Below, one piece after another: positions 3,027-17,953 of a DNA stretch of 64,000 bases. Source of the DNA: a virus (taxonomy: Duplodnaviria > Caudoviricetes); IMG/VR virus record IMGVR_UViG_3300028048_000110, positions 1 to 64,000 of that record, one strand, 5' to 3'. The notes under the pieces are model-generated. The model saw only the letters and a list, made by a program, of their open reading frames with translations. It did no database searches and had not been told where the DNA came from. How positions within the stretch are numbered: position 1 is the stretch's first letter; each line of letters starts with the position of its first letter. The translations under genes were made by a program, and so were the position numbers.

Positions 3027-3371
3027 ATGGTTGGCCTTGAAGATCTAGACAGTCTTAGCTTTTCAACAGTCAAGAGACTTCTAGAGAGAATATGCAAGTC
3101 CTTAGGCTTCAGACTCTTTCATTGTCCAATTTCATTTGCACCAGTTTACATTTGTTGGCACTTAGATGCTGGTGATGTTCGCAATGCTGTCTTCCTTGAA
3201 GGGCATAATCGAGATGACTTCCGGACAGCTAAAGATCTTCTTAGAGGAATTCTTGCAGTTAAAGCCTTCAAGCTCAGGTCTTTAGATACAGGTGAAGAGA
3301 AGATAATTCCAAATCCATTTTGCGGCTTGGATATCTCAGCCTTGAAGATCAAGCTTGATCTTCTAGCCTAA
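3027..3371 (+). CDS. Array protein (C-term NPFCGLDISALKIKLDLLA)
   Basis: 114 aa; terminal motif; N-helix VKRLLERICKSLGFRL. Confidence 0.85.
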   Translation: MVGLEDLDSLSFSTVKRLLERICKSLGFRLFHCPISFAPVYICWHLDAGDVRNAVFLEGHNRDDFRTAKDLLRGILAVKAFKLRSLDTGEEKIIPNPFCGLDISALKIKLDLLA

Positions 3372-3448
3372 GATTTTCTCTAGTAGACAGCCTTAGCATT
3401 TCCTAAGATCTTAGTTTCAAAAAGCCTAAGATTTGATATGATGTTAGC

Positions 3449-3754
3449 ATGAGATATGGATTGCGTAGAGAAGTTGAGAGGATGATGAAGCTCTTAGGTA
3501 AAAGTCCTTGGCGTCTTGTGCTTACTAAGAATCTTTCAGATTGTAAATTCAGATATAGGCTTGTTGACTGCTCTCAATTTGCTAGAACCATAGTTGTTGA
3601 AGGAATTGGAGCAAACAAGAAGGAAGCCCTGGAGAATCTTCTAGAGACATGGAGAGGTGAACAAACAGAGCTAGAGTGCCCAGCGAGATCTAGAGAAGAG
3701 CTGGAGATAAAGCTGGCGCTTCTAGAAATAGATGAGAAGAAAAAGAAGAAGTAG
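3449..3754 (+). CDS. Array protein (RSREELEIKLALL)
   Basis: 101 aa; promoter at 3434-3442; TAG stop with backup TGA at 3764-3766. Confidence 0.85.
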   Translation: MRYGLRREVERMMKLLGKSPWRLVLTKNLSDCKFRYRLVDCSQFARTIVVEGIGANKKEALENLLETWRGEQTELECPARSREELEIKLALLEIDEKKKKK

Positions 3755-3797
3755 TTGGATTTCTGAACTGAAGCCTAAGACTTGGTAAAATATTGCT

Positions 3798-4256
3798 ATG
3801 GAAGAAGACAAGTCATTTGCAGTGCCAACCTACAAGAAAGTCCAGATCTTCAAGTGGCTAGTGAAGAAGCACAACTGCACAGTTGGCTTTGAGCATGACT
3901 TCTTCTGGAAAGACCGCAAGAAAAAGACGAAGACTTGGCTTGCTACACCAAAGCTGTCTAGGAATGGAAAAGACTTTGTGCTCTGTGTAGTTAGCAAAGA
4001 GTTTCCAACTGCAGTCCTGTCTGTCAACCTTCCTAGCAAGCATGCAACTTTGTCTTATGCAGATGTGCTTGATGCTCTGCTAGACAAGATCAAGAAAGCT
4101 GGAAGTGACTGCTGGCTAGGATTTGGTAGTTGGCCTTACACAAGAGCAGAAGTCTTCTTGCCTAAAGACACCACCTTAGAAGAGCTGTGCATTGAGTTTG
4201 ACTTAGCGTGGAGAGATTCATTCAAGCATCTTCTCACCAGAAAGCCTAAGAACTGA
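3798..4256 (+). CDS. Array protein (TTLEELCIEFDLA); paralogue of 13708-14202
   Basis: 152 aa; promoter at 3783-3791. Confidence 0.85.
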   Translation: MEEDKSFAVPTYKKVQIFKWLVKKHNCTVGFEHDFFWKDRKKKTKTWLATPKLSRNGKDFVLCVVSKEFPTAVLSVNLPSKHATLSYADVLDALLDKIKKAGSDCWLGFGSWPYTRAEVFLPKDTTLEELCIEFDLAWRDSFKHLLTRKPKN

Positions 4257-4264
4257 GAAGAAGG

Positions 4265-4636
4265 ATGAAATACAAAAAAGAGAACAAGCTCACTAAGGCT
4301 AGAGTCTTGAGAAAGTTTGTTGAGACACTTGACTTGAAGCTGGAGAAGGTGTCTTCTATTGCATCAACAGGTGGTAGTGTAAAATACTGGAGGCTAGTTC
4401 GAGATCGTAGCAGTGAGATTTGTCCACTCTATACGCCGAACTTCTTCAAGATCTATACATTTGGTTCACGAACAGTCATTTTAGACTTTCTCTTGAATGA
4501 CATTCCATGGTGGTACGAGAAATGGCCAGAGGGAAAAGTTGAATTTGTAAATCCACTATTTGGCTGCAAGACTTTAGAAGAAGCAATGATGAAGCTTGAC
4601 TTGCTAGATTCAAAAAAGCCTAAGAAAGGAAAATGA
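4265..4636 (+). CDS. Array protein (NPLFGCKTLEEAMMKLDLL)
   Basis: 123 aa; full motif. Confidence 0.9.
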   Translation: MKYKKENKLTKARVLRKFVETLDLKLEKVSSIASTGGSVKYWRLVRDRSSEICPLYTPNFFKIYTFGSRTVILDFLLNDIPWWYEKWPEGKVEFVNPLFGCKTLEEAMMKLDLLDSKKPKKGK

Positions 4637-4645
4637 GGCAAAGAG

Positions 4646-5386
4646 ATGAGCATCCAACCATCTTTAGATCTGCTAGATAAAATCTTCTTGAGAGCTAGAG
4701 AGAATGCAGTTAGAGCTGTTGGTGAAGACGTTCTAGCTGGCGCTGAAGTCTTCTTGAACTGGGTTGGTGGTAGATGGTGGGTTGAGTTGACTCTAAGCCA
4801 TTGCATTGCCGAGAAGTTCAACATATGGCTTTCACACGCAGAAAAAGCGCGTGATGTCTACTGTGAATTATGCCATGAGTTTGCTCGCTGGTGCCCGCCA
4901 ATTGACCGTGGCATGATGCCTTCTCAGCTGAATGGCCAAAGCAAATACTATCAACAGTTTCCAGAGTCTGTTGTCTGGCTCGGCCCGCTTGTCTCATTTG
5001 AAGACACTAGTAGAACACGAGCCGCCAGGGAGATCTTCAAGAAGCCTAAGGCAGTTGAGCTGCTTCTCTTAGGCTTCACCAACACTCAGCTCCAGGTGGT
5101 TGACAGTGCTGTCCACATAGAAGCAATGGCTGCAGCACATGCTAAGAACACGAAGATCACCGGCAAGCTGGAAGCTCTGCAGAAGAGAATGGCAGCAAGC
5201 ATGAAAGCAGGAGATCTCAGCAAGACTGAAGCTGCAAGTCTCGCAGCTAGCATGATATCAATGATGGACGAGAAAGAGAAAACTAGCAAGGAAGCAGATG
5301 ATGCTGGAAGAACTTTAGTTCCAGTGCTTCCTTTCTCAGCAGAGTCTCTTGAAGAGCTAGAGATGAAGTTTGATCTATTTTCCTAA
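4646..5386 (+). CDS. Array protein, long coiled-coil member (ESLEELEMKFDLFS)
   Basis: 246 aa; motif at extreme C-terminus. Confidence 0.85.
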   Translation: MSIQPSLDLLDKIFLRARENAVRAVGEDVLAGAEVFLNWVGGRWWVELTLSHCIAEKFNIWLSHAEKARDVYCELCHEFARWCPPIDRGMMPSQLNGQSKYYQQFPESVVWLGPLVSFEDTSRTRAAREIFKKPKAVELLLLGFTNTQLQVVDSAVHIEAMAAAHAKNTKITGKLEALQKRMAASMKAGDLSKTEAASLAASMISMMDEKEKTSKEADDAGRTLVPVLPFSAESLEELEMKFDLFS

Positions 5387-5413
5387 GACCTAAAAGCCTA
5401 AGATTTTGGTAGA

Positions 5414-5815
5414 ATGATGTCATGCAGAAAGAGAGAAGAGAAGGCAAAGAAAGAAGAAGACATGGCCGCTGTTGGAAAGAGCTTGAGAACCAGCACGATG
5501 CTAGACCCTATTTCACCTGAAGTTCTTGAGAGCAGCTTGCTCCTAGACCGTGCATTGAAGCAGCTAAGCCTTTTTCGTGAGTGGTGGCATGGGATCTGGC
5601 TTATCGTTGACAATTCTAAGCATCCATACAAGAGGCTAAGAGACTTCACTGATGAAGGTGCTCAGACAATCAACAGCTTAAGTGACTTTCTTGAGACTGA
5701 GTGCTTTGAACAACACAGCTTTGGCCAAAAGCAAGACTACAATATTGTCATGAACCCTTTCCACAGCATGTCTAAAGAAGAGCTAGCAGTCAAGCTTGAT
5801 CTTCTAGAAGCCTAA
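5414..5815 (+). CDS. Array protein (NPFHSMSKEELAVKLDLL)
   Basis: 133 aa; promoter at 5407-5415. Confidence 0.85.
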   Translation: MMSCRKREEKAKKEEDMAAVGKSLRTSTMLDPISPEVLESSLLLDRALKQLSLFREWWHGIWLIVDNSKHPYKRLRDFTDEGAQTINSLSDFLETECFEQHSFGQKQDYNIVMNPFHSMSKEELAVKLDLLEA

Positions 5816-5818
5816 GAA

Positions 5819-6154
5819 ATGATGATGAAGAAGAACAGCAAGCTAGACAAGATGAAGCTCCTCAAGAAAGCTCTAAAGCACCTTGGCCTTAAGCTGAGGT
5901 GGTGGGGAGCTGCAGGCTTTCGAGATGGAAAAGCCGGATTTCTGGCAGTTGATGACCACAACAATCTCTACATGTGGTACAAAGAGAGCTACTATGTTGA
6001 CGGCAACTACAAGATCTCTAAGCTAGAGGACTTCCTCTCAGCAAGATACTTTGAGCACTACAACGTAGTTAGGCACAACATAGAGAATCCTTTCTTTGGG
6101 CTGGCGCCTGAAGAGCTAGCAATAAAGCTTGACTTGCTGGAGGACGACCAGTGA
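5819..6154 (+). CDS. Array protein (NPFFGLAPEELAIKLDLL)
   Basis: 111 aa; N-helix LLKKALKHLGLKL. Confidence 0.9.
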   Translation: MMMKKNSKLDKMKLLKKALKHLGLKLRWWGAAGFRDGKAGFLAVDDHNNLYMWYKESYYVDGNYKISKLEDFLSARYFEHYNVVRHNIENPFFGLAPEELAIKLDLLEDDQ

Positions 6155-6594
6155 AAGACCCACATTTTGGAGAGACTAAGCCAATTGAAGTCCAAGACAG
6201 AGAAGAGGCATGCATAAGAAGAGTGTGCAAGCACTTCAATTGGACATGCGATGTTGCACCAAGTCCACTAGCTAGCAACTATGAAGCAATCAAGCTAAGA
6301 CCGAGAGAGTACATTGCTCTTGGCGATGAAAACACATCACTTAGGTGCCTTAGCCCTTCTAGAGGAGAAGCACACTCAACTTGGCTAGTGTTTGATGACT
6401 TTCTTGAGTGGCTTGATGTTGTTGAGTGGTTCAGCAGCAATGACTGGTTCAATTATTTCGGCGGTAAGCATTTTGGTGATGGCAAGTACTCTCCTTGGAC
6501 AGTCAGCAATCCATTCTTTGGAAGAGGGTTGAAGACAGTTGAAGAAGTTGAGATGTTTCTAGACTTGGTGGAGAGGCCACATAATGAGTCTTGA
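6151..6594 (+). CDS. Array protein (NPFFGRGLKTVEEVEMFLDLV)
   Basis: 147 aa; GTGA overlap with previous gene. Confidence 0.85.
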   Translation: MKDPHFGETKPIEVQDREEACIRRVCKHFNWTCDVAPSPLASNYEAIKLRPREYIALGDENTSLRCLSPSRGEAHSTWLVFDDFLEWLDVVEWFSSNDWFNYFGGKHFGDGKYSPWTVSNPFFGRGLKTVEEVEMFLDLVERPHNES

Positions 6595-7069
6595 GAGAAG
6601 AAAGACAGAGAAGTCTAGAGAGTGCACATGCAGAGACATGGCGAAAGTCTATGACATGATGTTCAACAACTGCCTAGCCGTGATACTAGAGATAGAGGCA
6701 GTTTACCCACAGACTAAGCAAGTAGACTTCGCTCTACTGTACTATGGCCCAAAGAAAGATGATGTTGGAAAAGAGGTGTGGATTGAGACTAGTGGCATGC
6801 ACATGGCGCTGCTACATACCACAGTAGACATGGATGTCTTGATGGCAGAGCTAGGCACATCTCTTCCACTGCAGCCAGCAAGTCTGCATGCTGTCCCTAA
6901 GGATGGCGCAGAGAAGACTAAGGCTGCTATTGGAGAAGCAGTTGCAAAGACCATAGAAGCGTGGGCACCACTGCCAACACGCATAGTTGGTGAGTTTGGC
7001 GATGACTTGCTAGTTAGTGCAAGCTCACTTGAAGAGCTGATGGTGATGAGCGACTTGCAGAGCAGTTGA
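6584..7069 (+). CDS. Array protein (ASSLEELMVMSDL); paralogue of 8481-8957
   Basis: 161 aa; shares PKDGAE..KA.IGEA with the 8481 ORF. Confidence 0.85.
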   Translation: MSLERRKTEKSRECTCRDMAKVYDMMFNNCLAVILEIEAVYPQTKQVDFALLYYGPKKDDVGKEVWIETSGMHMALLHTTVDMDVLMAELGTSLPLQPASLHAVPKDGAEKTKAAIGEAVAKTIEAWAPLPTRIVGEFGDDLLVSASSLEELMVMSDLQSS

Positions 7070-7135
7070 CTGCATAAGGCATGTTTAGATTCGCACGGCA
7101 CGTATTACAATAACACTAACTAGTAGAGGCACGCC

Positions 7136-7648
7136 ATGGCAAAGAAGAGCAAGAAGAATGCAACTAGAAGCACAAGTGCATTTCCATTTGCATCAATGCC
7201 AACAAGAGAGACTGCTGGAAAGACCCTCAAGATTCTTGCTAGAAAGCTTGGCAGAAAAGCATTTGCACTGCACTACTGTGCATCAAGCACACCGTCATTC
7301 ACGCTGTGCATTGCACGAGATGAGCACTATGCTGCTGAGCATGTGGTTCCATTGACATTTTCAAGTGGAAGTAGCTTTGAGCAAGGGAGAGAAGTCCGCA
7401 TGATGGATCTTGACATCATCTATCTCCATAGCCCTATCAAGTTCAAAGAGAGTGCTTTTTTGTCACTCGATGAATTTGCCTACTGGATGAGAAGAGACAT
7501 AGCAGACATTGAGCTGCGCGTGTGGGATGCCATAGTAAATGAGCTTTCACTAGATGCTGCGCATGGCCGCCCAACTAGAGTCTGGCAAGGGATGAAGTGG
7601 GTTGAAGTTGACCCTTGGGAGCTTGCAGTTGAAGCAGACTTGACTTGA
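7136..7648 (+). CDS. Array protein (DPWELAVEADLT)
   Basis: 170 aa; short form of the motif. Confidence 0.8.
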   Translation: MAKKSKKNATRSTSAFPFASMPTRETAGKTLKILARKLGRKAFALHYCASSTPSFTLCIARDEHYAAEHVVPLTFSSGSSFEQGREVRMMDLDIIYLHSPIKFKESAFLSLDEFAYWMRRDIADIELRVWDAIVNELSLDAAHGRPTRVWQGMKWVEVDPWELAVEADLT

Positions 7649-8055
7649 TGGATACCGTGTGCATGATTGAGAAGATGCTATATGCACTTGCTAGACTGCT
7701 TGGCAAGAAGACTAGAGATGATGAGGCTTTCTGCAGAAAGTGGGCAGGCATTGAGTCAAGAGACTATGTCTTTAGTGCCAGGCGTGAATGCATATGGGAG
7801 AAGCCATGGAAAGTTGAGTTCTATGACTTGCATCGTTGGAATGGAGACCGCTGCCATTGGAATAGCCATGACGTGGAAAGTGGAGATGGAATGTGCTTGA
7901 AAGAGGCATGGAAAGACATGGCACGAAGAATTGTTGAGCATGAGAGAGCTAGTTCAAGAGAAGAGGCATTGGTGAAAGCTGAGCTAGAAGCGCATAGAGA
8001 GCTGCCAAGAGGGTGGGGTAGAGAAGAAGCTGATGCTCACTGGCTAGTGGGTTGA
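7645..8055 (+). CDS. Hypothetical protein with weak motif (SSREEALVKAEL)
   Basis: 136 aa, Trp-rich, in operon. Confidence 0.7.
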   Translation: MMDTVCMIEKMLYALARLLGKKTRDDEAFCRKWAGIESRDYVFSARRECIWEKPWKVEFYDLHRWNGDRCHWNSHDVESGDGMCLKEAWKDMARRIVEHERASSREEALVKAELEAHRELPRGWGREEADAHWLVG

Positions 8056-8068
8056 GGAGGCTGAGAAG

Positions 8069-8488
8069 ATGGATGCAAAGAGCAAGAAGCTGTTAAAGAA
8101 GGTGCTACGAGCTGTTGGGCTAGTTCTTGACAAAAGCTGCAAGAAGTACTCAGCAAAGAGCTGGGACCCTAATGGAGAACTTCTGACAGTGAAGTCCTTG
8201 AAGTGCATTCGTGCAGAAGATGTTGAGAGCAAGAAGATGGCTGCAGCAGTGCACTTCATTGACAAAGACAGTGGAGACCTCTCTTGGAAGTTCTTTGCTG
8301 GAGCCTGGTATTTTGAAGATGAAGCCGAGATCATTGAGAAGCTTGGAGAGGCTAGAGAGTTCATGTGGCTAGATGATAGCAAGCTAGCAAACATCTCAAT
8401 TGCTGAAGATGTTTTGCGCTGGAATAACCCTCTCTTTGGGTGCAAGAGCCTTGAAGAGATGGCAATAAGGAGCGACTTAGATGCTTGA
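8069..8488 (+). CDS. Array protein (NPLFGCKSLEEMAIRSDL)
   Basis: 139 aa; full motif. Confidence 0.9.
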   Translation: MDAKSKKLLKKVLRAVGLVLDKSCKKYSAKSWDPNGELLTVKSLKCIRAEDVESKKMAAAVHFIDKDSGDLSWKFFAGAWYFEDEAEIIEKLGEAREFMWLDDSKLANISIAEDVLRWNNPLFGCKSLEEMAIRSDLDA

Positions 8489-8957
8489 CCGGTGCCTAAT
8501 GAAGAAGATCTATGACGCACTCTTTGGCAGGTTTGGTGCAGTAGAAGTCATGGTGCTAGACAGCTCTCCATGCACGAGCGAGCTTGAGTTCATTGTCATT
8601 CTCTACAACAGCAGTCGTGACTACAGTGAGTTTGGAAAGGATGTGTGGATTGGGCCTAGCAGGACATTGATGGCACAGCTTAGAGTAAAGATGCATGAAG
8701 ATGCCTTCAAAAGAGACCTTGGCCTCTTTTGCTCTGTGGAGCCAGCACACTGGTGGCAGCCAACATGTTGGTGGCACATCCTTCCAAGAGATGGCGCAGA
8801 TGAAGTCAAAGCTAGCATTGGAGAAGCAATAGTTGCTGCAGTCAAGCAGTGGGAGCCAAAGACAACATGGATCGCCAGTGGCAATGGCAAGGAACTGATA
8901 GCTATGGCAAGCTCACTTGAAGAGCTTCTAGTGCAAAGTGACTTGCGCAGTAGGTGA
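8481..8957 (+). CDS. Array protein (ASSLEELLVQSDL); paralogue of 6584-7069
   Basis: 158 aa. Confidence 0.85.
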   Translation: MLDRCLMKKIYDALFGRFGAVEVMVLDSSPCTSELEFIVILYNSSRDYSEFGKDVWIGPSRTLMAQLRVKMHEDAFKRDLGLFCSVEPAHWWQPTCWWHILPRDGADEVKASIGEAIVAAVKQWEPKTTWIASGNGKELIAMASSLEELLVQSDLRSR

Positions 8958-8970
8958 GAAAGGCAGAAAG

Positions 8971-9258
8971 ATGGACAAACTAGATGGAGAGAAGATAGAG
9001 CAGATGCTGAACTATCTTAAGTGGAAAACTGGCAAAGAGCTCTCACTCAAGGAGATCTTTGCGCTAGTCTACTTGGCAGACAGATACCATCTTAGAAAGT
9101 ATGGAATGACACTGATTAGAGGGCACTCTATTCCAGGTCCTGAAGGATACATGGCAGTTGATTCTTCTCTCCCTCCAATCAATCTTGATGTTGCTCACAG
9201 CTTGGGTCTGCACCCAGAAGACACAGAGAGGTTTCTCATCGAGCTAGACTTAGCATAA
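8971..9258 (+). CDS. Array protein with Panacea/SocA (DUF4065)-like N-terminal segment (DTERFLIELDLA)
   Basis: LVYLADRYHLRKYG resembles the DUF4065 KLLYFADRxHLxKYG motif; ATG at 8971 within track ORF 8938-9258. Confidence 0.6.
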   Translation: MDKLDGEKIEQMLNYLKWKTGKELSLKEIFALVYLADRYHLRKYGMTLIRGHSIPGPEGYMAVDSSLPPINLDVAHSLGLHPEDTERFLIELDLA

Positions 9259-9311
9259 GCTGCACATGCTTGTCGGTTTATCTAGTAGATAGGTGTGATA
9301 CTATAAAATCA

Positions 9312-9377: not shown

Positions 9378-9782
9378 ATGGATGAGAAGATGAAAGACAA
9401 GATCATGGCTTGGCTTTTAGAGAGAAGTCATCTAGAGCCAAAGCTTTGGCTAAAGCCTAACTCTATGGACAGTCATTACTATGGGTTGACAACCGAATGG
9501 AAAGATGGCGGCAGATGGAAGACTGTTGAGGTCCAATTTTGGTCTACTGAGCCAAGAGGACACAACATATCTGTATTTGTCTTAGATGCTGATGGTGAGC
9601 AGGCGCTTAGCATATCTCTGCATGAAGGCTTAGATCTATTGATGACATCTGTGCAAAAGTCAAAAAGTCCAATATACTTAGCATATTTGGATGGCTCTGA
9701 AGTGAGCACAGTGTTCATTGACAACAAAGACAGCTATGAGAAGTTGGCAATTGAGTGTGATCTTCAAAGAGGAGAGAAGTAA
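9378..9782 (+). CDS. Array protein (DSYEKLAIECDL)
   Basis: 134 aa. Confidence 0.85.
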   Translation: MDEKMKDKIMAWLLERSHLEPKLWLKPNSMDSHYYGLTTEWKDGGRWKTVEVQFWSTEPRGHNISVFVLDADGEQALSISLHEGLDLLMTSVQKSKSPIYLAYLDGSEVSTVFIDNKDSYEKLAIECDLQRGEK

Positions 9783-9785: not shown

Positions 9786-10145
9786 ATGGACAAAGCATGG
9801 CAGTTGTGCGTAGTTGATAGAGATGCTGTCGACTTAAGTAAAGCTCCAGAATTTGAGAAGATGCTTATGTCTGTGCAAGCGAAGTCACCATTTCCAAATG
9901 GCACGCCGGTGTTTGTTGTCACTTCAGAGCTTAAGTCATTCAAAAACTTAGCACAAGTGTATCAGACATTGACGTCTATTAGAAGATATGCTGTTATGAA
10001 TGGAATCTTGTTTTCATATGTGTGGATGCCAAAAGAGATGCACTATGGATGGATCATGCATGATCTATTAAGGCCAATTCTCACAGAAAGAGATGCGGTT
10101 GAGATGGAAGCAAAGTTTGGACTCAACTTAGAGGAGTTTGCATGA
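9786..10145 (+). CDS. Hypothetical protein with weak motif (DAVEMEAKFGL)
   Basis: 119 aa, in operon. Confidence 0.75.
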   Translation: MDKAWQLCVVDRDAVDLSKAPEFEKMLMSVQAKSPFPNGTPVFVVTSELKSFKNLAQVYQTLTSIRRYAVMNGILFSYVWMPKEMHYGWIMHDLLRPILTERDAVEMEAKFGLNLEEFA

Positions 10146-10564
10146 CATCTCTTGGCAAGAAGAGGCTATTGCACAGATGGATGGTAAGTCTTGGCATATA
10201 CTATGCAAAGATGCTCGAAACTAGAGAAGATGGCTTCTATGTGTTTGACTTGCTAGACAACAGCAAGACAAGCCATGCTGGATTCGGCTATGGCCCCACG
10301 CAGGACATTGCCATAGCATTCCACATAGAGAGCAGTGAGAAGCAAGCATGGAGCGCACAGCCTATGTCTATGCTTGACAATAGAGCACTAGCAGTCATGT
10401 CAACTTGCTTAGACAGGCAAGCATCATGGCAGACTATGTATGGGCCTATGTTTTTCTCTAGTGGTTTGCACACTCGAACAGCAATTGACCTAGCAGACTT
10501 CTCATGGGAGAAGTTGGCTGTCGACTTAGACTTAGCCGGTGAGATGGCAGTATGGACTGTGTAG
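10142..10564 (+). CDS. Array protein (FSWEKLAVDLDL); paralogue of 14189-14587
   Basis: 140 aa; shares DLLD..TS.AGF and FFSS.G with the 14189 ORF. Confidence 0.85.
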   Translation: MTSLGKKRLLHRWMVSLGIYYAKMLETREDGFYVFDLLDNSKTSHAGFGYGPTQDIAIAFHIESSEKQAWSAQPMSMLDNRALAVMSTCLDRQASWQTMYGPMFFSSGLHTRTAIDLADFSWEKLAVDLDLAGEMAVWTV

Positions 10565-10917
10565 ATCTAGAAGACTTGTGCAGTAGAGCTTTGAAGAAAC
10601 TTGGCTTAGAGCTTGTGCCAACAAAGAACAAAGATGGCACTGTTGCCTATTGGCAAATTGGCATCAAAAGACGTGGTCTCTTCCACCGCAACAGTTTTGT
10701 AGACTACAGCTGCGGTGGCAGCATGCTGTATGGCGCAATTGCTGCATCAATTGAAGAAGTTGCAAACATGCTGTTCAACTTGTATGACAAAGAGCTCAAT
10801 GCTCTGTACTGGAAGACATTCCATTGGATTGACAATGATGGAAACAGCAAGACTGCTGCAAACATATTTGCTGGAAAGAGCTTGTATGAAGCAGAGATAA
10901 TGCTAGACTTGGCATGA
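10552..10917 (+). CDS. Array protein (NIFAGKSLYEAEIMLDLA); paralogue of 14992-15351
   Basis: 121 aa. Confidence 0.85.
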   Translation: MDCVDLEDLCSRALKKLGLELVPTKNKDGTVAYWQIGIKRRGLFHRNSFVDYSCGGSMLYGAIAASIEEVANMLFNLYDKELNALYWKTFHWIDNDGNSKTAANIFAGKSLYEAEIMLDLA

Positions 10918-10959: not shown

Positions 10960-11358
10960 ATGGACACTATAGATGAGACAAAAGGCAAGACATATCTCTT
11001 AGTTGGCTTGCATGGCTTCTTTGTCAGTGAGACTGATGAGATTGGCATTGACAAGCCAAATGACTTGGCATACATTGCACAGTCATTGAAGAGGATCTAC
11101 ACAGATGCAAGACCATTTGGGTTCATGCGCTTCTACAAGAGCAAAGATGGCAGCAAGCACTTCATTGACAAGGGGTGGATCTACATTGATGGCAAGCTCA
11201 AGACTAGAGAAGAGGTCCTTGTCCAGAATGATGTTGATGGAGAGCACAGCATCCTTGCATCAAACATGAAGACTAACAACATGGATGCTGTTGTCTTCTT
11301 CAGCAATGGCAAAGTGTATCCATTTGACTTAGAGAAAGACACTATGCTAGAGATGTAG
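10960..11358 (+). CDS. Hypothetical protein without the motif
   Basis: 132 aa; own promoter at 10942-10950; ends TAG-TGA. Confidence 0.8.
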   Translation: MDTIDETKGKTYLLVGLHGFFVSETDEIGIDKPNDLAYIAQSLKRIYTDARPFGFMRFYKSKDGSKHFIDKGWIYIDGKLKTREEVLVQNDVDGEHSILASNMKTNNMDAVVFFSNGKVYPFDLEKDTMLEM

Positions 11359-11660
11359 TGAGGAGCTTGTGCATGAAAAGAAGAATGGTGTTTGCAACAC
11401 ATGAGCCCGGTTCTGGCTTTGGTCCATTTGCTTATTCTGGTATCTTTCCAGATGACTTCTCTCTAGAGCTTGACCCTGAGACATGCACAATAACAGCCCT
11501 TGTCCACAAGTTCTTGACTTTGAAGGGAGGAGCATCAGAGCAGTTTCCATACCTTGTTGACCGAAGTGGAAAGAGAGTTGGCATCTACAACGAGTTGAAA
11601 GCAAAGAGCATTGCTGAGCTAGAGCTGCAGCTTGACCTGCGCAATCTTGTCTGGGAGTGA
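11358..11660 (+). CDS. Array protein (KSIAELELQLDL)
   Basis: 100 aa (ATG alternative at 11373). Confidence 0.8.
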   Translation: MRSLCMKRRMVFATHEPGSGFGPFAYSGIFPDDFSLELDPETCTITALVHKFLTLKGGASEQFPYLVDRSGKRVGIYNELKAKSIAELELQLDLRNLVWE

Positions 11661-11693
11661 AAAGAAGAAAGAAGAGAGCAAGGAGAAGCAAAG

Positions 11694-11756: not shown

Positions 11757-11780
11757 GATTCAGCACTAGCTACACAGCAG

Positions 11781-12206
11781 ATGGTGATGAAAACTAATAG
11801 CAAGATCAAAAAATGCAGTGGAAGCCTTATGCTAGATATTCTAGAGTGGTTTGGCTTTCGCTTGAAGCTTGCTTCTTATTCAAAGAGATGGCAGCTAGTT
11901 TGGAAGAGCAATGGCTATACTGTGTTCTTTGTCAGGAACTATGATGTCCCACCATTCAGAAGATATGAGAGTTGCTTCAGCTTAGAGACGAAGCCTAAGA
12001 AGTTGCTTAGCAACTGCTTTGCCAAGTTCTTAGGTGATGTTGAGATGTTTGAGCTTGAAACTGGTGATGAGACTGAGACAGACATCACATCCCTTGTTGG
12101 CCGGCTCAAGAATCCTCTCTTCGGATGCAAGAGCCTAGAAGAGATGAGAGTGAAGATTGACTTGCTAGGTGAGAACAAGGAGAAGGGAAGTCATGATGAC
12201 AGGTGA
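11781..12206 (+). CDS. Array protein (NPLFGCKSLEEMRVKIDLL)
   Basis: 141 aa; full motif. Confidence 0.9.
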   Translation: MVMKTNSKIKKCSGSLMLDILEWFGFRLKLASYSKRWQLVWKSNGYTVFFVRNYDVPPFRRYESCFSLETKPKKLLSNCFAKFLGDVEMFELETGDETETDITSLVGRLKNPLFGCKSLEEMRVKIDLLGENKEKGSHDDR

Positions 12207-12498
12207 CAAGCTTCTTCATGCTGGCATTGAGCGGCTTCTTGCACCTCTAGGGGTGGGACTCACATGGGCTGATGACACTTGGTGGCTCTGCAGCAAGCAA
12301 GACTCTAGCAAGCTTGCCAGTATGGAGTCAGTAGATGGGATAAGCATTGTAGGCTACAACAAGCTTGATGCACTACTTGATGAACTTTGCTCTGAGATTT
12401 CTGAGATCCTAGTAGATGACCACTCCGTGTTGAATCCATATCTTGGCTGCAAAAGTCTAGAAGAGATGCGAATAAGATGTGACTTGCTAGGTGCTTGA
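12193..12498 (+). CDS. Array protein (NPYLGCKSLEEMRIRCDLL)
   Basis: ATG at 12193 within track ORF 12169-12498. Confidence 0.9.
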   Translation: MMTGDKLLHAGIERLLAPLGVGLTWADDTWWLCSKQDSSKLASMESVDGISIVGYNKLDALLDELCSEISEILVDDHSVLNPYLGCKSLEEMRIRCDLLGA

Positions 12499-12510
12499 AA
12501 GGACTGCAAG

Positions 12511-12912
12511 ATGGACTGCACAGCTTGGACAGACAATCTAGGAAGCAAAGAAGCAGAGAGACTGCTCAAGAAGATAGGGCAGACTCTAGACTTTGAGTTG
12601 AAGCATGGTGAAGAATACTGGTTGTGGTATGAGACTACTAGATTGGTAGATGGTACGCATTTTGAGACTTCGGAAGCTGTGCGTTTTCCAAAAAGTTGTG
12701 GTGGACTTTGTGACTCTGCTTTTCTGAAGCCTAGTGGACTGCTGCAAGCTGTCTTGCAGACCCGCATCTTCAGAGTCACTGTGCATAGAGATTGCAAAAG
12801 ATGGCAAGAGAGCCACTTTGTCTTGAATCCTGTCTTCAATGTCAAGAGCCTAGAAGAGCTAGAGATCACCTTAGACTTGCTTGGAGAGAGGACTGCAAAG
12901 AATGGATGCTGA
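12511..12912 (+). CDS. Array protein (NPVFNVKSLEELEITLDLL)
   Basis: 133 aa. Confidence 0.9.
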   Translation: MDCTAWTDNLGSKEAERLLKKIGQTLDFELKHGEEYWLWYETTRLVDGTHFETSEAVRFPKSCGGLCDSAFLKPSGLLQAVLQTRIFRVTVHRDCKRWQESHFVLNPVFNVKSLEELEITLDLLGERTAKNGC

Positions 12913-13300
12913 AGACGCAAAGAAGAAGAGCAAGAACATGAGCAAGAAGAGTTTTGCTGTGGTTAGTTGGCAGCAAATCAAGAGAGCTTTGAAGCTGCTG
13001 TTTGCAAGAAAACTAGGAGCAGAGATACTTGAGATGCGGTTTATAGTCTCCTCATGGCCACCTAAATTTCCGAGCTTGATGGTGGTGTACGAAGATGAGG
13101 CTTGCAAAGAGAGCTGCTGCTCTCTACGGTGGACAGAAGACAAGACGTCTGTGCAAGTTGAGTCATGGCAGGATCTTGCTAGCACTCTAGAAGCTGGTGC
13201 TAGAGAAGGAAAGAGCTTTAGCGTAGGTCGAAAGACCGTGTTTGGTCCTGGAGACAGCATTGATAGCGCTTTAGTTGAAGCAGACTTGCTGTGTGGATGA
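12881..13300 (+). CDS. Array protein (DSIDSALVEADLL)
   Basis: 139 aa (likely start 12902). Confidence 0.8.
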   Translation: MERGLQRMDAEDAKKKSKNMSKKSFAVVSWQQIKRALKLLFARKLGAEILEMRFIVSSWPPKFPSLMVVYEDEACKESCCSLRWTEDKTSVQVESWQDLASTLEAGAREGKSFSVGRKTVFGPGDSIDSALVEADLLCG

Positions 13301-13316
13301 CAGAGAGGGAAGACAA

Positions 13317-13703
13317 ATGAATGACTTAGAGATGCTAGGAAGAAAAGTTGCTGGATCTGAGCCGCAAGCAAGGCAGTTAGTGCAAAGAGCTTTAGCAGTC
13401 TTAGGCTTTCGAGTTACCCATGATTCTTGGGGAATGTACATAGAGACAGTGGATGGAAAGCACGATGTCTTCTTTGCAGGTATGCCTGCCTTTTCATCAT
13501 CTTGGAGCAGTATTCTTGGGAAGCTAGTTGCTATAAGAGAGATTGGAGTAGAGACAACAAAAGAAGAATGGCCTTCAGACATAGAAGAAGACCGTGGAAG
13601 TGCAGACAGCAGCTTTAAGTGGACTAGCAATCCTTTCTTTGGGTGCAAGAGCTTTGAAGAGATCAGTGTGAAGCTTGACCTTATAGAAGAGAAGAGCATT
13701 TGA
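13317..13703 (+). CDS. Array protein (NPFFGCKSFEEISVKLDLI)
   Basis: ATG at 13317 within track ORF 13275-13703. Confidence 0.9.
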   Translation: MNDLEMLGRKVAGSEPQARQLVQRALAVLGFRVTHDSWGMYIETVDGKHDVFFAGMPAFSSSWSSILGKLVAIREIGVETTKEEWPSDIEEDRGSADSSFKWTSNPFFGCKSFEEISVKLDLIEEKSI

Positions 13704-13707
13704 GAAA

Positions 13708-14202
13708 ATGAACAGACTGACAAAGTACAGCATTCCAATCAAAAAGAAAGCAGCAATGCTTGACTGCATTCCAATCAAAAAGAAAGCGGCAATGCTTGAT
13801 TGGCTCTTTGGCCACAAGAAGATCATTGCCATAGTAGACACATCTGACTGCACGATGATGTTGTTCTGCCATGGCCAGTATCTTTGGAATGGCCAGGGAG
13901 AAACAATAAAGCTTCCAAATGCGATTTCACAACTAGAATGCTATTTTAGATGTGAAGGACTTATTAAGTACTACTATGTAGATTGCATAGTCAACGCAGT
14001 TGAATACAAAGCTAAGTGGCTAGATGCACTTCTTGAGCTGTCATTAAATGGATATCGAGTGATGCATGGATATGAAGTGCTTTTGCCAGCTAATGTCCAG
14101 ATGGAGAAGCTGCTCATAGACTTTGACCTTGCTCACCAAGATCACATCCCTTCAGGGTGTGATAGAGTTCACTTAGAAGGAGCAAGCAATGACAATGCAT
14201 GA
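13708..14202 (+). CDS. Array protein (VQMEKLLIDFDLA)
   Basis: 164 aa; contains a 36-nt tandem duplication. Confidence 0.85.
   Translation: MNRLTKYSIPIKKKAAMLDCIPIKKKAAMLDWLFGHKKIIAIVDTSDCTMMLFCHGQYLWNGQGETIKLPNAISQLECYFRCEGLIKYYYVDCIVNAVEYKAKWLDALLELSLNGYRVMHGYEVLLPANVQMEKLLIDFDLAHQDHIPSGCDRVHLEGASNDNA
13731..13802 (+). repeat. 36-nt tandem duplication (IPIKKKAAMLDC/W x2)
   Basis: cattccaatcaaaaagaaagc(a/g)gcaatgcttga(c/t)tg repeated head-to-tail with 2 mismatches. Confidence 0.95.
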
Positions 14203-14587
14203 AAAGACAAAGATATTAGTCAAGTGGATGAACAAGATAGGGGTGTTCTATGCTACACTGGACTTCATTGCTGAAGATGACTACTATACTATTGATCTTC
14301 TAGACAGCACTCGCACAAGCTATGCTGGATTCTGCTACTCTGGAAAGGGCACTCTAGTCGCATTCAAGATGCCATTCAGTGAGAAAGTTGCATCTTGGTT
14401 TCCGGATGTCACCATCAAGCAAGCAGCTAGAGAGATTGTGCAGACTCTTGATGACCAATCTAAGTGGTGCTTCGGTGATGGCGACATCTTCTTCTCATCA
14501 TCAGGTCCTGGAAGACTTTGGATAGACTTGCACAACTTCAGCTGGGAGCAAGTTGCTATTAACTTAGATCTATATAGAAGAGAATGA
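14189..14587 (+). CDS. Array protein (FSWEQVAINLDL)
   Basis: 132 aa; paralogue of 10142. Confidence 0.85.
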   Translation: MTMHEKTKILVKWMNKIGVFYATLDFIAEDDYYTIDLLDSTRTSYAGFCYSGKGTLVAFKMPFSEKVASWFPDVTIKQAAREIVQTLDDQSKWCFGDGDIFFSSSGPGRLWIDLHNFSWEQVAINLDLYRRE

Positions 14588-14588
14588 C

Positions 14589-15017
14589 ATGGTAAAAGTA
14601 AAGTTGAAGAGACCAAAGATGGAGCTTCTGTCTAGAGCACTAGACAAGATGAAGCTATGCCTTTCAGAAGTACGAGGTGATCTATATAGTGAAGATAAGA
14701 TTGACAGTCGTTGGCTATATCTAGTCCCAAAATGCTATGAACTAGAGGTCTCTTTGTGCAAGAAGATATGCTCTTTCAATGGAAAAAGGATTCTCAAAGA
14801 CTATTTCGTCCACGAGTGCTGTGGTTATTGCGGTGTCTTTCGAGGGACATCTGAGCAAGATGTCTTAGACAAGTTGTCAAGCATTGAAAAGCTGTTCTTT
14901 GAAGATCCAAGTGATCCAGATGCAACATGCACATTCAAGTCAATTGCATACCACAAGTCGCCAGAACAGCTAAAGATTGAGTTAGACTTAGATGGAGAAG
15001 ACAATGGACAGAGATGA
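14589..15017 (+). CDS. Array protein (KSPEQLKIELDL)
   Basis: 142 aa. Confidence 0.85.
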   Translation: MVKVKLKRPKMELLSRALDKMKLCLSEVRGDLYSEDKIDSRWLYLVPKCYELEVSLCKKICSFNGKRILKDYFVHECCGYCGVFRGTSEQDVLDKLSSIEKLFFEDPSDPDATCTFKSIAYHKSPEQLKIELDLDGEDNGQR

Positions 15018-15351
15018 GATGGAGACTGTCTGCACTAGAGCTCTTGCAAAGCTTGGCTTCAGGTTGATGCATGACACCGTTGGCAGCAGCTCTAGAGTCT
15101 ACCGCATCTTCTTTGACGACAACTCTGGCTTATTATATACCGTGTCATGCTTAGGGATGAACTTGGATTTCAAGAAGGAGTTTGCATCAATTGAAGACCT
15201 AGCATCATCAATGTTTGCAAGTCTAGATGGACAGCATGCACCATTGAGGACATTTGCGTACATGGTGTTTGGAGGTGACAGCTTTGTGGCAAATGACTGG
15301 TCATCAAAGACCATAGATGAAGCAGGAGTGCTGCTAGATATAGATAGTTAA
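14992..15351 (+). CDS. Array protein (KTIDEAGVLLDI)
   Basis: 119 aa; paralogue of 10552. Confidence 0.85.
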   Translation: MEKTMDRDEMETVCTRALAKLGFRLMHDTVGSSSRVYRIFFDDNSGLLYTVSCLGMNLDFKKEFASIEDLASSMFASLDGQHAPLRTFAYMVFGGDSFVANDWSSKTIDEAGVLLDIDS

Positions 15352-15367
15352 GTTTGGAAGTACGAAT

Positions 15368-15553
15368 ATGCAAGACTTTGCTTGGAACACATCACTGTTG
15401 GCAGAAGACAATAGTGAGAATGGTTGGCTAGAGCTGGCAAAAGCTTTGATGGAAAGTGCATCAATGGAAGAGTTCAACATCCGTAGAGACTTGCTCTCAC
15501 TAGATAGCATTGAGCAGAATGATGAAGATCCACAAGAGATGCCTTCTACTTGA
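15368..15553 (+). CDS. Minimal array protein (ASMEEFNIRRDLL)
   Basis: 61 aa. Confidence 0.65.
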   Translation: MQDFAWNTSLLAEDNSENGWLELAKALMESASMEEFNIRRDLLSLDSIEQNDEDPQEMPST

Positions 15554-15588
15554 GTTTAGTTCTTGAGACCATGGTGTACTATTGATAT

Positions 15589-16629
15589 ATGAAGTATGTA
15601 CAACCTAAGAGCTATGACTCTATAGATGCTTACAGCAGTGCAGACTATGTAGCTAAGCATGGATTCTTAGGGTGTGGATTTGATGGTGGCTATAGTGTTG
15701 CAGAAGCATTTATGGCAAAAGCGGCTGCATACAGCTGTCCACAGCTTGAGATTGATCTTGCTGTCAAAGGGATTGACATAGACAACATTTCAATTGAGAC
15801 ACTCTATGCTACACGCAGCTTAGACCATTGGTCTGTCAATGACATGTTTGAGAGAATCTTTGCGAAGTGTGTCTTCATGGGTTGGTTCTTCAATGGCTTC
15901 TTGAATGCATGTGCTGAGACAAAGTTCTTAGACAACTGGCTGTTGTCAGAGATTTTCATGTCAAATGTGCATGCCGGCAGCATTAGAGGGATGTGGGGCA
16001 TCATCTGCCACCATGAAAATGGGACAAAAGAGCCATATAGAAGTAGATTTAGAGCATTCATCAAGTCTTTAGACGACAGAGGGCTAGACTGGACAAAGAA
16101 GTATCTTGATCCTGACAATTTCTTTGGAAAAAAGAGAGGTGTATTGGCTATGAGCAGGCTTGAAGAAAAACAGATGCTTGATGCTGCTCTACAGAAATGC
16201 TGGAAGCTTGCAGCAAAGAAGATTCTTGATAAGGTCTGTGGACGTAAAATTGAGTCTATGTGTGTTGGATATGGATTAGATGTTGGATATGGACTAGGTT
16301 TTTACAATTCCGCAGTCATTGGAGATGCTGAGAACATATTCATATGCAATGTTGCATTCAGTTTTGGAGAAGCAAGGCGCATTATGATAGAGCCATCTAG
16401 ACACAATATGTCTAAACTGCACGCAATGGTTGATGTTGATGAGCTTGATGAGAATGAGTCAAAGTCAGTCATGCGAGCACTGTTCTATTCTAGCCGTCCA
16501 ATTGAACTCGTGAAGAACAGGTATGGAGCAACTGGAAAGTCAATTGCACCAAGCTCAATTCTAGATGCACTAGAGACAGTTGGCTTGTGTGCAGAAGAGC
16601 TGCTAGTGCAAAGTGACTTAAATAGATAG
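15589..16629 (+). CDS. Large array protein with C-terminal LCAEELLVQSDL and an internal motif-like YSCPQLEIDL
   Basis: 346 aa; ends in TAG, next TGA at 16675-16677. Confidence 0.85.
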   Translation: MKYVQPKSYDSIDAYSSADYVAKHGFLGCGFDGGYSVAEAFMAKAAAYSCPQLEIDLAVKGIDIDNISIETLYATRSLDHWSVNDMFERIFAKCVFMGWFFNGFLNACAETKFLDNWLLSEIFMSNVHAGSIRGMWGIICHHENGTKEPYRSRFRAFIKSLDDRGLDWTKKYLDPDNFFGKKRGVLAMSRLEEKQMLDAALQKCWKLAAKKILDKVCGRKIESMCVGYGLDVGYGLGFYNSAVIGDAENIFICNVAFSFGEARRIMIEPSRHNMSKLHAMVDVDELDENESKSVMRALFYSSRPIELVKNRYGATGKSIAPSSILDALETVGLCAEELLVQSDLNR

Positions 16630-16640
16630 AAGGAACAGCC

Positions 16641-17090
16641 ATGGTATACAAGTCAGAACTACTAGAGAACAACATGAAGAAAGACTTCAATGCTCGTATG
16701 GAGTTGTATCTCAACAGCAAGTCTATCCATGAGTATCTCGTTGAAAGAGACTTGAAAGGGCTCAACAAGTACAACTTCAAGCTATCTGATGAGTTTTTGT
16801 GGTGGTACATCTTGAAAGAAGAGTTTGGGATGTTTGTGCTAGGTGCATCACTAGCAGTAGTCTTAGGCATAGCTATTCCAGTGCTTCTCTACATCTGTGG
16901 ACTGTGGTGGGTATGGTCAATTGCTGTCGCTATAGTACTAGAGGCAATCGTGTCACTTTTCATTGTAGTTACGCTGAAGACAGTCAGCTGTCTCAGTGAA
17001 AAGCGTGTAGACTCACCAATAGACGGCAGCAGAGACTACTTTGCGCGTGTTGATGCCCAAATGTCATCAAAGCAGATGCCAAATGAGTAG
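16641..17090 (+). CDS. Membrane protein with N-terminal copy of the motif (KSIHEYLVERDL) and 2 TM helices
   Basis: 149 aa; two hydrophobic stretches. Confidence 0.8.
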   Translation: MVYKSELLENNMKKDFNARMELYLNSKSIHEYLVERDLKGLNKYNFKLSDEFLWWYILKEEFGMFVLGASLAVVLGIAIPVLLYICGLWWVWSIAVAIVLEAIVSLFIVVTLKTVSCLSEKRVDSPIDGSRDYFARVDAQMSSKQMPNE

Positions 17091-17592
17091 ACTAGTTGAA
17101 AGGCTTTTGAAGAAGCATGGTCTAGATGGAATCAGAATAGTCTTTTTTCTTGATCCATTCTCTAGCAGTAAGATAAAGTTGATGGCTGTGAAAGACAAAG
17201 ACAAAGCTACTATGTGGCAGACGAGATTTGACATACGGTGTGGAGCTGAGACAGATGAGATGCTGTGCAGCATATGGGAAGACTTAGTTGGCTCATGCTT
17301 AGACAGAATGGCTGTTTACCGCATAATTGACTTCACTCAAAAGATGTGGAAAGATCCACATTTTGCCAATGCAAGAGATGCCATTCTTGACATTGTAGAG
17401 AACAGGCTTCTAGAAGAATCTGCTGCTGGAAGAGCTATCAGTCTAGTTGATCAATTTGGAGACAATGTGCTGTTTGACCGTGCTGTATATGAGTTCATTG
17501 CTCCATTCAGCACAAGAGAGAGCTTGTCAATAGGCTTAGACTTAGAGGAGAGAGCAGATGTGGCCATTCAAGAGAGACAATGCCATAGTTGA
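17083..17592 (+). CDS. Array protein (STRESLSIGLDL)
   Basis: ATG at 17083 within track ORF 17041-17592. Confidence 0.8.
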   Translation: MSRLVERLLKKHGLDGIRIVFFLDPFSSSKIKLMAVKDKDKATMWQTRFDIRCGAETDEMLCSIWEDLVGSCLDRMAVYRIIDFTQKMWKDPHFANARDAILDIVENRLLEESAAGRAISLVDQFGDNVLFDRAVYEFIAPFSTRESLSIGLDLEERADVAIQERQCHS

Positions 17593-17953
17593 CAGCCGTC
17601 TTGTTGAGATGGCAAAGGTGTATGTTGACAGCAGAACACTTGAAGAGTTCTTTGTTGCTGTTGACTTGAAGATGCTGAAGCCGGTGTCGTGGTGGAAGTG
17701 GACTAACCCTTTTGTTGTTTTCCATGTGCTGAAGAGGAAGAAGGTGGGAAAGCTAGTCCAATTTGCATTTCCAACTATTGTATGTGGCATTGGCATTGCT
17801 AACATCATACTTAAAAGTCCTTTTGCCATTCTACTACTAGTCCAATGTGCAATGCTAGTCATGCAGTTTTGGATTGGCAGCAAAGAGATGGACGCTAGGC
17901 GAGCTATAAGCTATGTTGAGATAGAGAGGCTGAAAGAAAGACTAGGCATATGA
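17558..17953 (+). CDS. Membrane protein with N-terminal motif (RTLEEFFVAVDL) and 2 TM helices; paralogue of 16641
   Basis: 131 aa. Confidence 0.8.
   Translation: MWPFKRDNAIVDSRLVEMAKVYVDSRTLEEFFVAVDLKMLKPVSWWKWTNPFVVFHVLKRKKVGKLVQFAFPTIVCGIGIANIILKSPFAILLLVQCAMLVMQFWIGSKEMDARRAISYVEIERLKERLGI

Follow-up and report, generated by a model that had tools for sequence, protein, structure and literature searches.

A tandem array of 34 small phage genes that share one conserved helix motif, 13 of which form an undescribed family

INTRODUCTION

Why should 34 consecutive small genes of a phage carry the same short motif, in most cases at the very end of the protein? The question is raised by the virus record IMGVR_UViG_3300028048_000110 (Duplodnaviria; Caudoviricetes), of which we analysed positions 1 to 64,000 (hereafter the window), that is, the first 64 kb of one 90,991-bp contig. 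An earlier sequence-only reading of the window, made without database searches, had proposed that the genes at 3027–17953 encode divergent proteins joined by a common C-terminal docking tag, and both its coordinates for this array and all six of the examples that it quoted proved exact. Huge phages carry hundreds of genes without assigned function, and the array reduces a stretch of such genes to one recognisable unit with a testable handle. In this study, we found that the array is real, striking and of an undescribed family, and we weighed whether its common motif is a tag attached to different proteins or a part of one fold that has diverged.

RESULTS

One helix motif runs through the array and is confined to it

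The array comprises 34 consecutive open reading frames (ORFs) on the + strand, encoding proteins of 61–346 amino acids (aa), which abut or overlap with gaps of −38 to +120 nt, mostly smaller than 20 nt; this packing suggests long polycistronic transcripts. The sizes of 31 of the 34 proteins cluster at 95–170 aa. Array-type sequence makes up a block of 15–20 kb, about 16% of the contig.

A motif-anchored alignment of the proteins gave the pattern [S/T]-h-E-E-h-x-[I/V]-x-h-D-L, in which the Asp is present in 31 of the 34 members, the Leu that follows it in 32, and the two Glu in 26 and 25, respectively. The I/V position is hydrophobic in all 34, and the helix N-cap is S, T or D in 31. When written as a strict regular expression, the pattern matched 25 of the 34 proteins, versus a mean of 0.21 (maximum 2) in 500 shuffles, and it occurred only twice in the 57,924 residues of the other ORFs of the genome. 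An independent tail hidden Markov model (HMM) of 13 residues, built from distant database relatives only and from no window sequence, scored at least 6 bits in 21 array ORFs versus 2 ORFs elsewhere when all six frames of the 91-kb genome were searched. The proposal that one motif is common to consecutive ORFs over ~15 kb is borne out by these counts. Its terminal position and its prefix are less general than had been claimed: no more than 10 residues separate the motif from the C-terminus in 25 of the 34 members, but it stands near the N-terminus in two membrane proteins (16641 and 17558; members are named here by their start positions) and mid-chain in a protein of 61 aa, and NPxFG, said to precede it often, is found upstream of it in 10 of the 34.

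At the nucleotide level, the information in the motif is periodic by codon, with codon positions 1 and 2 conserved and with variation among the codons for Leu (all six are used) and for Ile/Val. Because the third codon positions vary, selection acts on the motif at the level of the peptide and not of the DNA. The motif is thus real, highly non-random, confined to the array block and selected at the protein level. A synonymous bias was also observed, the first Glu being encoded by GAA in 20 of 26 cases, the second by GAG in 21 of 25 and the Asp by GAC in 24 of 31. The GAA-GAG and GAC-TTR preferences mostly mirror codon-pair habits elsewhere in the array, and avoidance of GAGGA-like words together with Asp–Leu codon pairing explains only part of the bias.

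With its S/T-x-x-E spacing the motif contains a classical helix capping box, and a part of it therefore serves helix formation. On a helical wheel, the high-information positions (Glu, Glu, I/V, Asp and Leu) fall within one arc of 80–200 degrees, and the other hydrophobic positions, variable in identity, occupy the opposite arc. Two known elements that resemble the motif were considered and rejected. A Cro/C1-type helix-turn-helix, the second helix of which can read S-x-E-E-L-A, does not fit, as the chain ends within 10 residues after the motif in 25 of the 34 members and no helix-turn-helix family of Pfam was matched. A beta-clamp-binding peptide (Q-L-[S/D]-L-[F/L]) does not fit either, since Gln occupies the first position in only 4 of the 34, Lys or Glu being commoner there.

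Thirteen members form one full-length domain family

In BLASTP comparisons among the array proteins, most pairs were linked only through their last 20–25 residues, and four pairs were full-length paralogues. The ten members with NPxFG align end to end and have in common a basic helix at the N-terminus that ends in Gly, a Trp residue and the tail. A profile of these ten members detected 115 proteins in a collection of 5.8 billion proteins, and 285 clusters of the core family (50% identity, E≤1e-3) were found among 1.84 billion representatives. The relatives are nearly all 95–150 aa long and matched end to end, with a conserved N-helix, NPxFG and tail, and none of them has a Pfam domain or a name. 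A body-only HMM made from relatives outside the window detected 13 of the 34 array members (E from 7e-4 to 9e-13) and left the other 21 undetected. All-against-all HHalign comparison with the tails removed gave one network of 11–13 core members and two separate pairs, with 17 bodies unlinked. Between subfamily C and the core, the HHalign alignment was confined to the 14-residue tail (P=6e-5). No element other than the tail is common to most members.

As judged from these alignments, the 13 members are one previously undescribed domain family of ~110 aa, with an N-terminal helix, an NPxFG turn and a capped tail helix, and in about 40% of the array the "tag" is, on the same grounds, the best-conserved end of a full-length domain. 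The description of the bodies as dissimilar accordingly holds at the sequence level for about 60% of the array but not for these 13 members. The sequence-only reading had itself named what would speak against a tag, namely a known domain spanning the whole protein; a full-length domain of this kind does exist in the 13 members, but it is not a known one.

Database searches gave no counterpart. Against Pfam, the best match of the 34 array proteins had E=0.018, the matches being to scattered DUFs (domains of unknown function) with one member each, and against PHROGs there was none. Sixty diverse relatives gave one Pfam match (E=0.0095), and a profile search reached E=0.22 at best against the sequences of the PDB. 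Look-ups of two proteins in the ESM Atlas returned rows below threshold or none. The statement that the motif belongs to no described family is in line with the empty Pfam, PHROG and PDB sequence searches, and no description of such an array was found in the literature. One apparent relative from the profile search, a 451-aa repeat protein (P0250), was rejected as a low-complexity false positive.

Two predicted structures share an order of elements and a confident terminal helix

Structures were predicted with AlphaFold2 for the core member 8069 (alignment of 90 sequences) and for the subfamily C member 8481 (30 sequences). In both models the elements follow in the same order: a helix from residue 3 or 4 to residue 15, about four to five strands, a helix-strand-helix-strand(s) segment and an 11-residue terminal helix. 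This likeness is one of element order only. The tail helix is among the most confident parts of both models, with a predicted local distance difference test (pLDDT) score of 84–95 in 10-residue blocks. A confidently modelled terminal helix and a similar order of elements are better explained if the helix is an integral part of one diverged fold than if it is an appended tag.

Foldseek searches of the PDB and BFVD with both models gave E≥0.1 throughout. In a comparison against 48,161 chains with VIA-align, Z did not exceed 3.4 with the core model and 4.0 with the subfamily C model, where the tool's stated background is Z 7–8; rows for the double-stranded RNA-binding domain (dsRBD) lay at Z 2.0–2.8 with both models, against the same background. 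T7 Gp1.2, the early dGTPase inhibitor, and dsRBD-like alpha-beta3-alpha folds are similar to the models in being small alpha/beta structures with a terminal helix packed on a sheet, but both scored at noise level with the core model (Gp1.2 with Z 3.4, root-mean-square deviation 4.1, 66 residues; the dsRBD rows with Z 2.0–2.7), and neither shows sequence similarity. Taking the models at face value, the fold of the array proteins is probably new. A family without counterpart in Pfam, PHROGs or the PDB, one member of which has a confident model (predicted template modelling score, pTM, 0.87) and no structural neighbour, is a good target for structure determination. A mean-field direct coupling analysis, made to look for contact of the N-helix with the tail, was discarded, as artefacts of gaps and conservation dominated its output.

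Sister arrays show turnover of individually maintained genes

Two further contigs, of 207 kb (L002) and 447 kb (L006), each carry 40–45 consecutive small ORFs on the + strand, and 29 of the 45 array ORFs of L006 score with the motif HMM. Window genes have orthologues in these two contigs in syntenic blocks, which are broken by genes present in one genome only. Orthologues are 79% identical in the tail and 71% in the body; conservation of the bodies as well as of the tail indicates that each gene is individually maintained. In one place (L002:5909–6799) the orthologues of 12511 and 12902 lie in a single ORF of 296 aa, owing either to a fusion or to a frame difference between the genomes.

Members also occur singly. 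They are dispersed among unrelated genes in a 432-kb contig (L003), and in IMG/VR one single contig with a member was found (17.6 kb), an otherwise unrelated phage in which the member ends a helicase-polymerase-kinase (replication/nucleotide) block. The core domain family is usually single-copy in other contigs, and the contigs of distant relatives are 575–687 bp long, so that their context is uninformative. No tblastn match was obtained among the INPHARED phages, and no copy was found in the GTDB representative genomes (185,579 prokaryote species).

Three database relatives have an unusual architecture. P0140 carries two head-to-tail copies of the NPxFG-helix unit (~20 aa). P0150 and P0194 consist of two domains, each with a tail of its own, and the tail-like helix that ends the upstream domain of P0194 resembles that of window gene 3798.

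The array is written in the standard code of a phage that reads TAG elsewhere

When TAG was treated as a sense codon, the summed length of ORFs of at least 200 aa grew more than threefold, from 6,326 to 21,695 aa, and a tRNA with anticodon CTA (labelled Pyl by ARAGORN), able to read TAG, is encoded towards the end of the contig (Table 1). In-frame TAG is absent from the 4,784 codons of the array, as it is from the genes for the Dda-like helicase, the NAD ligase and DnaB; there are 5–19 TAG in the tail-sheath (two paralogues), lysis and sugar-modification (glycosyltransferase) genes. That the array genes lack internal TAG, as had been claimed, is correct as a count, but it follows partly from the procedure by which ORFs are called; what matters is that the entire 15 kb is tiled by ORFs in the standard code. 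The accompanying claim, that the genes lie behind sigma-70-type promoters, did not hold up, as 24 such sites were found where 29.6 were expected. Recoded phages reportedly keep their early genes in the standard code, and following this published idea the absence of TAG suggests that the array consists of standard-code genes that are probably expressed early. In code-switching phages, the array may then cleanly mark the programme that is written in the standard code and presumed to be early.

Besides the two tail-sheath paralogues, the contig encodes GroEL and SbcCD (Table 1); no terminase or capsid gene was found among the ORFs scanned. Assemblies from sheep and cattle rumen, as judged from sample names, contain close homologues of array proteins, on contigs of 207–455 kb. 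The lack of terminase and capsid genes in the ORFs scanned, taken together with relatives on contigs of 432–455 kb, suggests that the 91-kb contig represents part of a huge-phage genome, probably that of a TAG-recoded myovirus of ~450 kb. The nearest phages in GenBank show only ~29% identity, in DnaB.

A gene outside the array resembles a family member. It lies at 46371–46841 in the ligase block and has an N-terminal amphipathic helix and a good tail, with an in-frame TAG at codon 116, upstream of the tail. Under the standard code it would give a tail-less product, and with TAG read as Gln a tailed one.

DISCUSSION

We put at about even chances the explanation that the array grew by tandem amplification and diversification of a single ancestral small protein, the helix of which was kept for a shared interaction. 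Descent from one ancestor accords better than the repeated gain of a tag with the tandem arrangement, the similar sizes and the similar order of elements. The basic unit would be an alpha/beta domain of ~110–160 aa between an N-terminal and a C-terminal helix, and tandem duplication could have given rise to the 34 copies seen here and to the 40–45 ORFs of the sister genomes. The middles may have diverged past sequence recognition, as binders that serve host takeover or anti-defence would be expected to do during an arms race. The tag itself would be a helix of 11–12 residues with an N-terminal cap, the variable hydrophobic face of which packs on each protein's own core, and the near-invariant face (two Glu, I/V, Asp and Leu) may have been kept for a common step, either binding to one shared partner or the joining of members to one another. 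Synthesis of the proteins would fall in the standard-code phase, at a time when the amber-suppressor tRNA has not yet given access to the TAG-rich late genes. Origin by duplication and conservation of the helix for a shared interaction are compatible ideas. Should the invariant face bind a single partner, host takeover by rumen and gut megaphages would have a central node in it, and the variable bodies would amount to a natural binder library.

Host-takeover and pre-early modules are known from SPO1 (gp37–60), from the pre-early region of T5 and from the terminal-repeat genes of Twort-like phages. Like the array, they comprise ~20–30 small, packed genes on the same strand, of unknown fold, which lie apart from the structural genes and are presumed to act first on the host. 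Unlike the array, they are not one family and have no common terminal motif; the early timing of the array, for its part, is read from the code partition alone.

Several observations weigh against a common origin of all 34 genes with a helix kept for a partner. For 21 of the 34 bodies, similarity to the core or to one another lacks statistical support, and the HMM of the N-helix supports the core members only, so that descent from one ancestor leans on two models compared by element order, on likeness in size and on the location of the genes within the array. The high pLDDT of the tail would equally fit a purely structural role, and the S/T cap and the Glu at N3 are explained by intrinsic helix capping, with no need for a partner. 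The timing of expression is likewise drawn from codon content only.

The best placed of the alternatives, which we consider possible though somewhat unlikely, is that the helix is purely structural, the folding nucleus of a fast-evolving small domain, and that the array is an ordinary, if very large, paralogue family. The tail has the highest pLDDT in both models, the capping box and the pattern of buried hydrophobic residues explain several of the conserved positions, and in the wider family the tail is always paired with the N-helix and NPxFG in a full-length domain. However, the helix also lies near the N-terminus of the two membrane proteins and in the 61-aa protein, which is too short for the domain, and this supports a role beyond the stability of the fold; the head-to-tail duplication in P0140 points the same way. 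Moreover, the invariant residues lie on one face while the face presumed to be buried is variable. Helix dipoles are such that an Asp near the C-terminus of a helix is not favoured by stability alone, and the invariant Asp is thus unexpected for a helix with a structural role only.

A docking tag, as the sequence-only reading had it, is possible but unproven. Given that the tail is the sole element common to most members, varies in position and is duplicated in P0140, part of the case for it stands, but a terminal helix fits better as an integral part of a diverged fold. We regard as unlikely that the helix is a portable address tag, the first in a phage, by which dozens of different early payloads, among them membrane proteins and a mini-protein, are coupled through one invariant acidic-hydrophobic face to a single hub of the host or the phage, or to one another; the gene at 46371–46841, at least, would have such a tag switched on by the change of TAG to Gln. 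Were this true, huge phages would possess a combinatorial arsenal of adaptors comparable to the F-box/PRANC arrays of eukaryotic viruses. The poxvirus ankyrin/PRANC arrays are similar in that they consist of clustered paralogues, each combining a variable body that binds a target with a conserved element at the C-terminus, which is presumed to link it to one hub of the host, and in that the copy number turns over between relatives. They differ in that PRANC is an F-box-like domain of ~40–50 aa with a known partner (Skp1-cullin) on recognisable ankyrin-repeat bodies, whereas the phage array has a helix of 11–12 residues on mostly unrecognisable bodies and a bacterial host, and no PRANC or F-box family was present among the Pfam matches of the array proteins at E≤0.1.

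It is quite improbable, in our estimate, that the tag is modular in the strict sense, that is, that unrelated bodies gained a module of ~12–20 aa by recombination, with a host protease/unfoldase, RNA polymerase or a phage structure as the hub, as the sequence-only reading proposed. The 17 singletons in the body-only comparisons speak for it, as do the N-terminal, internal and C-terminal positions of the motif, the duplicated unit of P0140, the tail at each domain of P0194 and P0150, and a gene, 46371–46841, that gains its tail only by TAG read-through. Yet tandem arrays normally arise via duplication, both modelled subfamilies share the order of elements and the terminal helices, and the sizes of 31 of the 34 proteins cluster at 95–170 aa; in addition, no fusion of the module to a known domain was found in proteins of 420–2000 aa, which is weak evidence.

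Very large myoviruses often pack internal proteins into the capsid. A role of the helix as an address for packaging or for co-ejection with the DNA, in the manner of the T4 capsid-targeting sequences or the cargo-loading peptides of encapsulins, is nevertheless very improbable here. A short terminal peptide shared by diverse small proteins, in a phage that is probably a very large myovirus with two sheath paralogues, speaks for such a role, and the T4 internal proteins and encapsulin cargo peptides do provide a precedent for a short terminal peptide that acts as an address on otherwise different proteins. However, the array is in the standard code like the replication genes while the structural genes are TAG-rich, two of the carriers are membrane proteins, and the motif has no similarity to known targeting peptides. 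The T4 sequence is N-terminal (~10 aa), the prohead protease cleaves it and its carriers are late proteins packed into the virion, and the encapsulin peptides are extended C-termini of the Gly/Ser/Leu type, whereas the array motif is an acidic capped helix on standard-code genes. A capsid-targeting sequence of the T4 type was rejected, since the array motif is C-terminal in most members and its genes are TAG-free like the replication genes.

Conservation at the nucleotide level, as a promoter, a ribosome-binding element or an RNA structure at gene ends, is largely refuted: the synonymous bias (GAA then GAG for the Glu pair, GAC-TTG/TTA for Asp-Leu) would favour it, but the other motif codons are close to random at their third positions, GAG-GAR is likewise avoided by the Glu-Glu pairs that the array has outside the motif and the same pairing rule holds for Asp-Leu pairs, the distance to the next start ranges from overlap to more than 100 nt, and promoter-like sites are not enriched.

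GENE TABLE AND MINOR FEATURES OF THE LOCUS

The members of the array and the other located features are listed in Table 1.

Table 1. Array genes and other features of the contig. "Body HMM" is the body-only HMM from non-window relatives; numbers after "Asp codon", or in brackets after a tail or motif, are positions.
Feature	Coordinates	Strand	Description
Gene 1	3027..3371	+	114 aa; core NPxFG family; body HMM E=2.8e-11; Asp codon 3357
Gene 2	3449..3754	+	101 aa; tail only, Asp replaced by Ala; independent tail HMM 13.6 bits; motif position 3716; TAG stop
Gene 3	3798..4256	+	152 aa; tail 16 aa from end; like 13708 around tail; Asp codon 4200; 89% identical orthologue in L002
Gene 4	4265..4636	+	123 aa; core family; body HMM E=2.2e-10; Asp codon 4598
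Gene 5	4646..5386	+	246 aa; body unlinked, tail terminal; Asp codon 5372; 66% orthologue in L002
Gene 6	5414..5815	+	133 aa; core family, paralogue of gene 7; body HMM E=7e-4; HHalign probability 100 with 5819; Asp codon 5798
Gene 7	5819..6154	+	111 aa; core family; body HMM E=8.8e-13; Asp codon 6131
Gene 8	6151..6594	+	147 aa; core family; body HMM E=6e-6; orthologue dispersed in 432-kb contig (L003); Asp codon 6562
Gene 9	6584..7069	+	161 aa; subfamily C; 36% identity to 8481 over 151 aa; Asp codon 7052
Gene 10	7136..7648	+	170 aa; body unlinked, tail terminal; Asp codon 7637
Gene 11	7648..8055	+	135 aa; tail-like helix (Asp replaced by Glu) ~23 aa from end (7981); tail HMM 7.8 bits
Gene 12	8069..8488	+	139 aa; core family; body HMM E=4e-9; AlphaFold2 pLDDT 75, pTM 0.67; tail helix 128–138, pLDDT ~90
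Gene 13	8481..8957	+	158 aa; subfamily C; AlphaFold2 pLDDT 88, pTM 0.87; tail helix 146–156; no fold neighbour
Gene 14	8971..9258	+	95 aa; body unlinked, tail terminal; Asp codon 9247
Gene 15	9378..9782	+	134 aa; body unlinked, tail (9759); orthologue in L006
Gene 16	9786..10145	+	119 aa; weakest tail (Asp replaced by Gly, 10119); tail HMMs do not detect it
Gene 17	10142..10564	+	140 aa; subfamily D, paralogue of 14189 (40% identity over 131 aa); Asp codon 10529; TAG stop
Gene 18	10552..10917	+	121 aa; core family, paralogue of 14992; body HMM E=3e-6; Asp codon 10906
Gene 19	10960..11358	+	132 aa; doubtful internal tail-like stretch 40 aa from end (11230); low HMM scores
Gene 20	11373..11660	+	95 aa; body unlinked, tail (11634); tail HMM 7.0 bits
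Gene 21	11781..12206	+	141 aa; core family; body HMM E=1e-10; Asp codon 12159
Gene 22	12193..12498	+	101 aa; core family; body HMM E=4e-8; Asp codon 12481
Gene 23	12511..12912	+	133 aa; core family; body HMM E=1.6e-8; Asp codon 12874
Gene 24	12902..13300	+	132 aa; body unlinked, tail (13283); 75% orthologue in L002
Gene 25	13317..13703	+	128 aa; core family; body HMM E=1.5e-8; Asp codon 13677
Gene 26	13708..14202	+	164 aa; tail 23 aa from end (14125)
Gene 27	14189..14587	+	132 aa; subfamily D; HHalign probability 100 with 10142; tail (14567)
Gene 28	14589..15017	+	142 aa; core family (weaker); body HMM E=1.4e-6; Asp codon 14985
Gene 29	14992..15351	+	119 aa; core family; body HMM E=1e-7; Asp codon 15337
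Gene 30	15368..15553	+	61 aa; mini-protein, very acidic (net charge −12), tail mid-chain (15488)
Gene 31	15589..16629	+	346 aa; last ~90 aa like subfamily C (BLASTP to 6584, E=0.002); tail terminal; Asp codon 16615; TAG stop
Gene 32	16641..17090	+	149 aa; membrane protein (hydropathy 2.82 over 19 residues); motif near N-terminus, Asp codon 16749
Gene 33	17053..17592	+	179 aa; body unlinked, tail 16 aa from end (17539)
Gene 34	17558..17953	+	131 aa; membrane protein (hydropathy 2.21); motif at residues 28–37 (17663)
ORF beside helicase gene	21844..22251	+	135 aa; weak motif near N-terminus; orthologue L003:19686–20132
Family-like gene outside array	46371..46841	-	tail HMM 15.1 bits on read-through segment; full-length HMM E=0.044
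SbcCD	66846..69943		genome coordinates
GroEL	69939..71630		genome coordinates
Tail sheath, first paralogue	81055..83508		genome coordinates
Tail sheath, second paralogue	84584..87337		genome coordinates
tRNA, anticodon CTA	88935..89009		genome coordinates

Two short words recur around the gene boundaries. The 9-mer AGCCTAAGA is present in 11 copies where 0.74 are expected, at 3365–5817 of the window on the + strand and additionally at 11992 and 27928. Seven of the copies are situated at or just before the boundaries of the first six array genes, some of them spanning the stop codon, and the word could be a processing, initiation or recombination element. The second word, CTAGTAGA, is found on the + strand at 3380, 7120 and 9282, so that three of the array's seven larger intergenic gaps contain it. 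Over the whole window there are 8 copies where 2.3 are expected, a number reached in 1 of 100 shuffles, and it is possible that this word is a phage-specific promoter or terminator.

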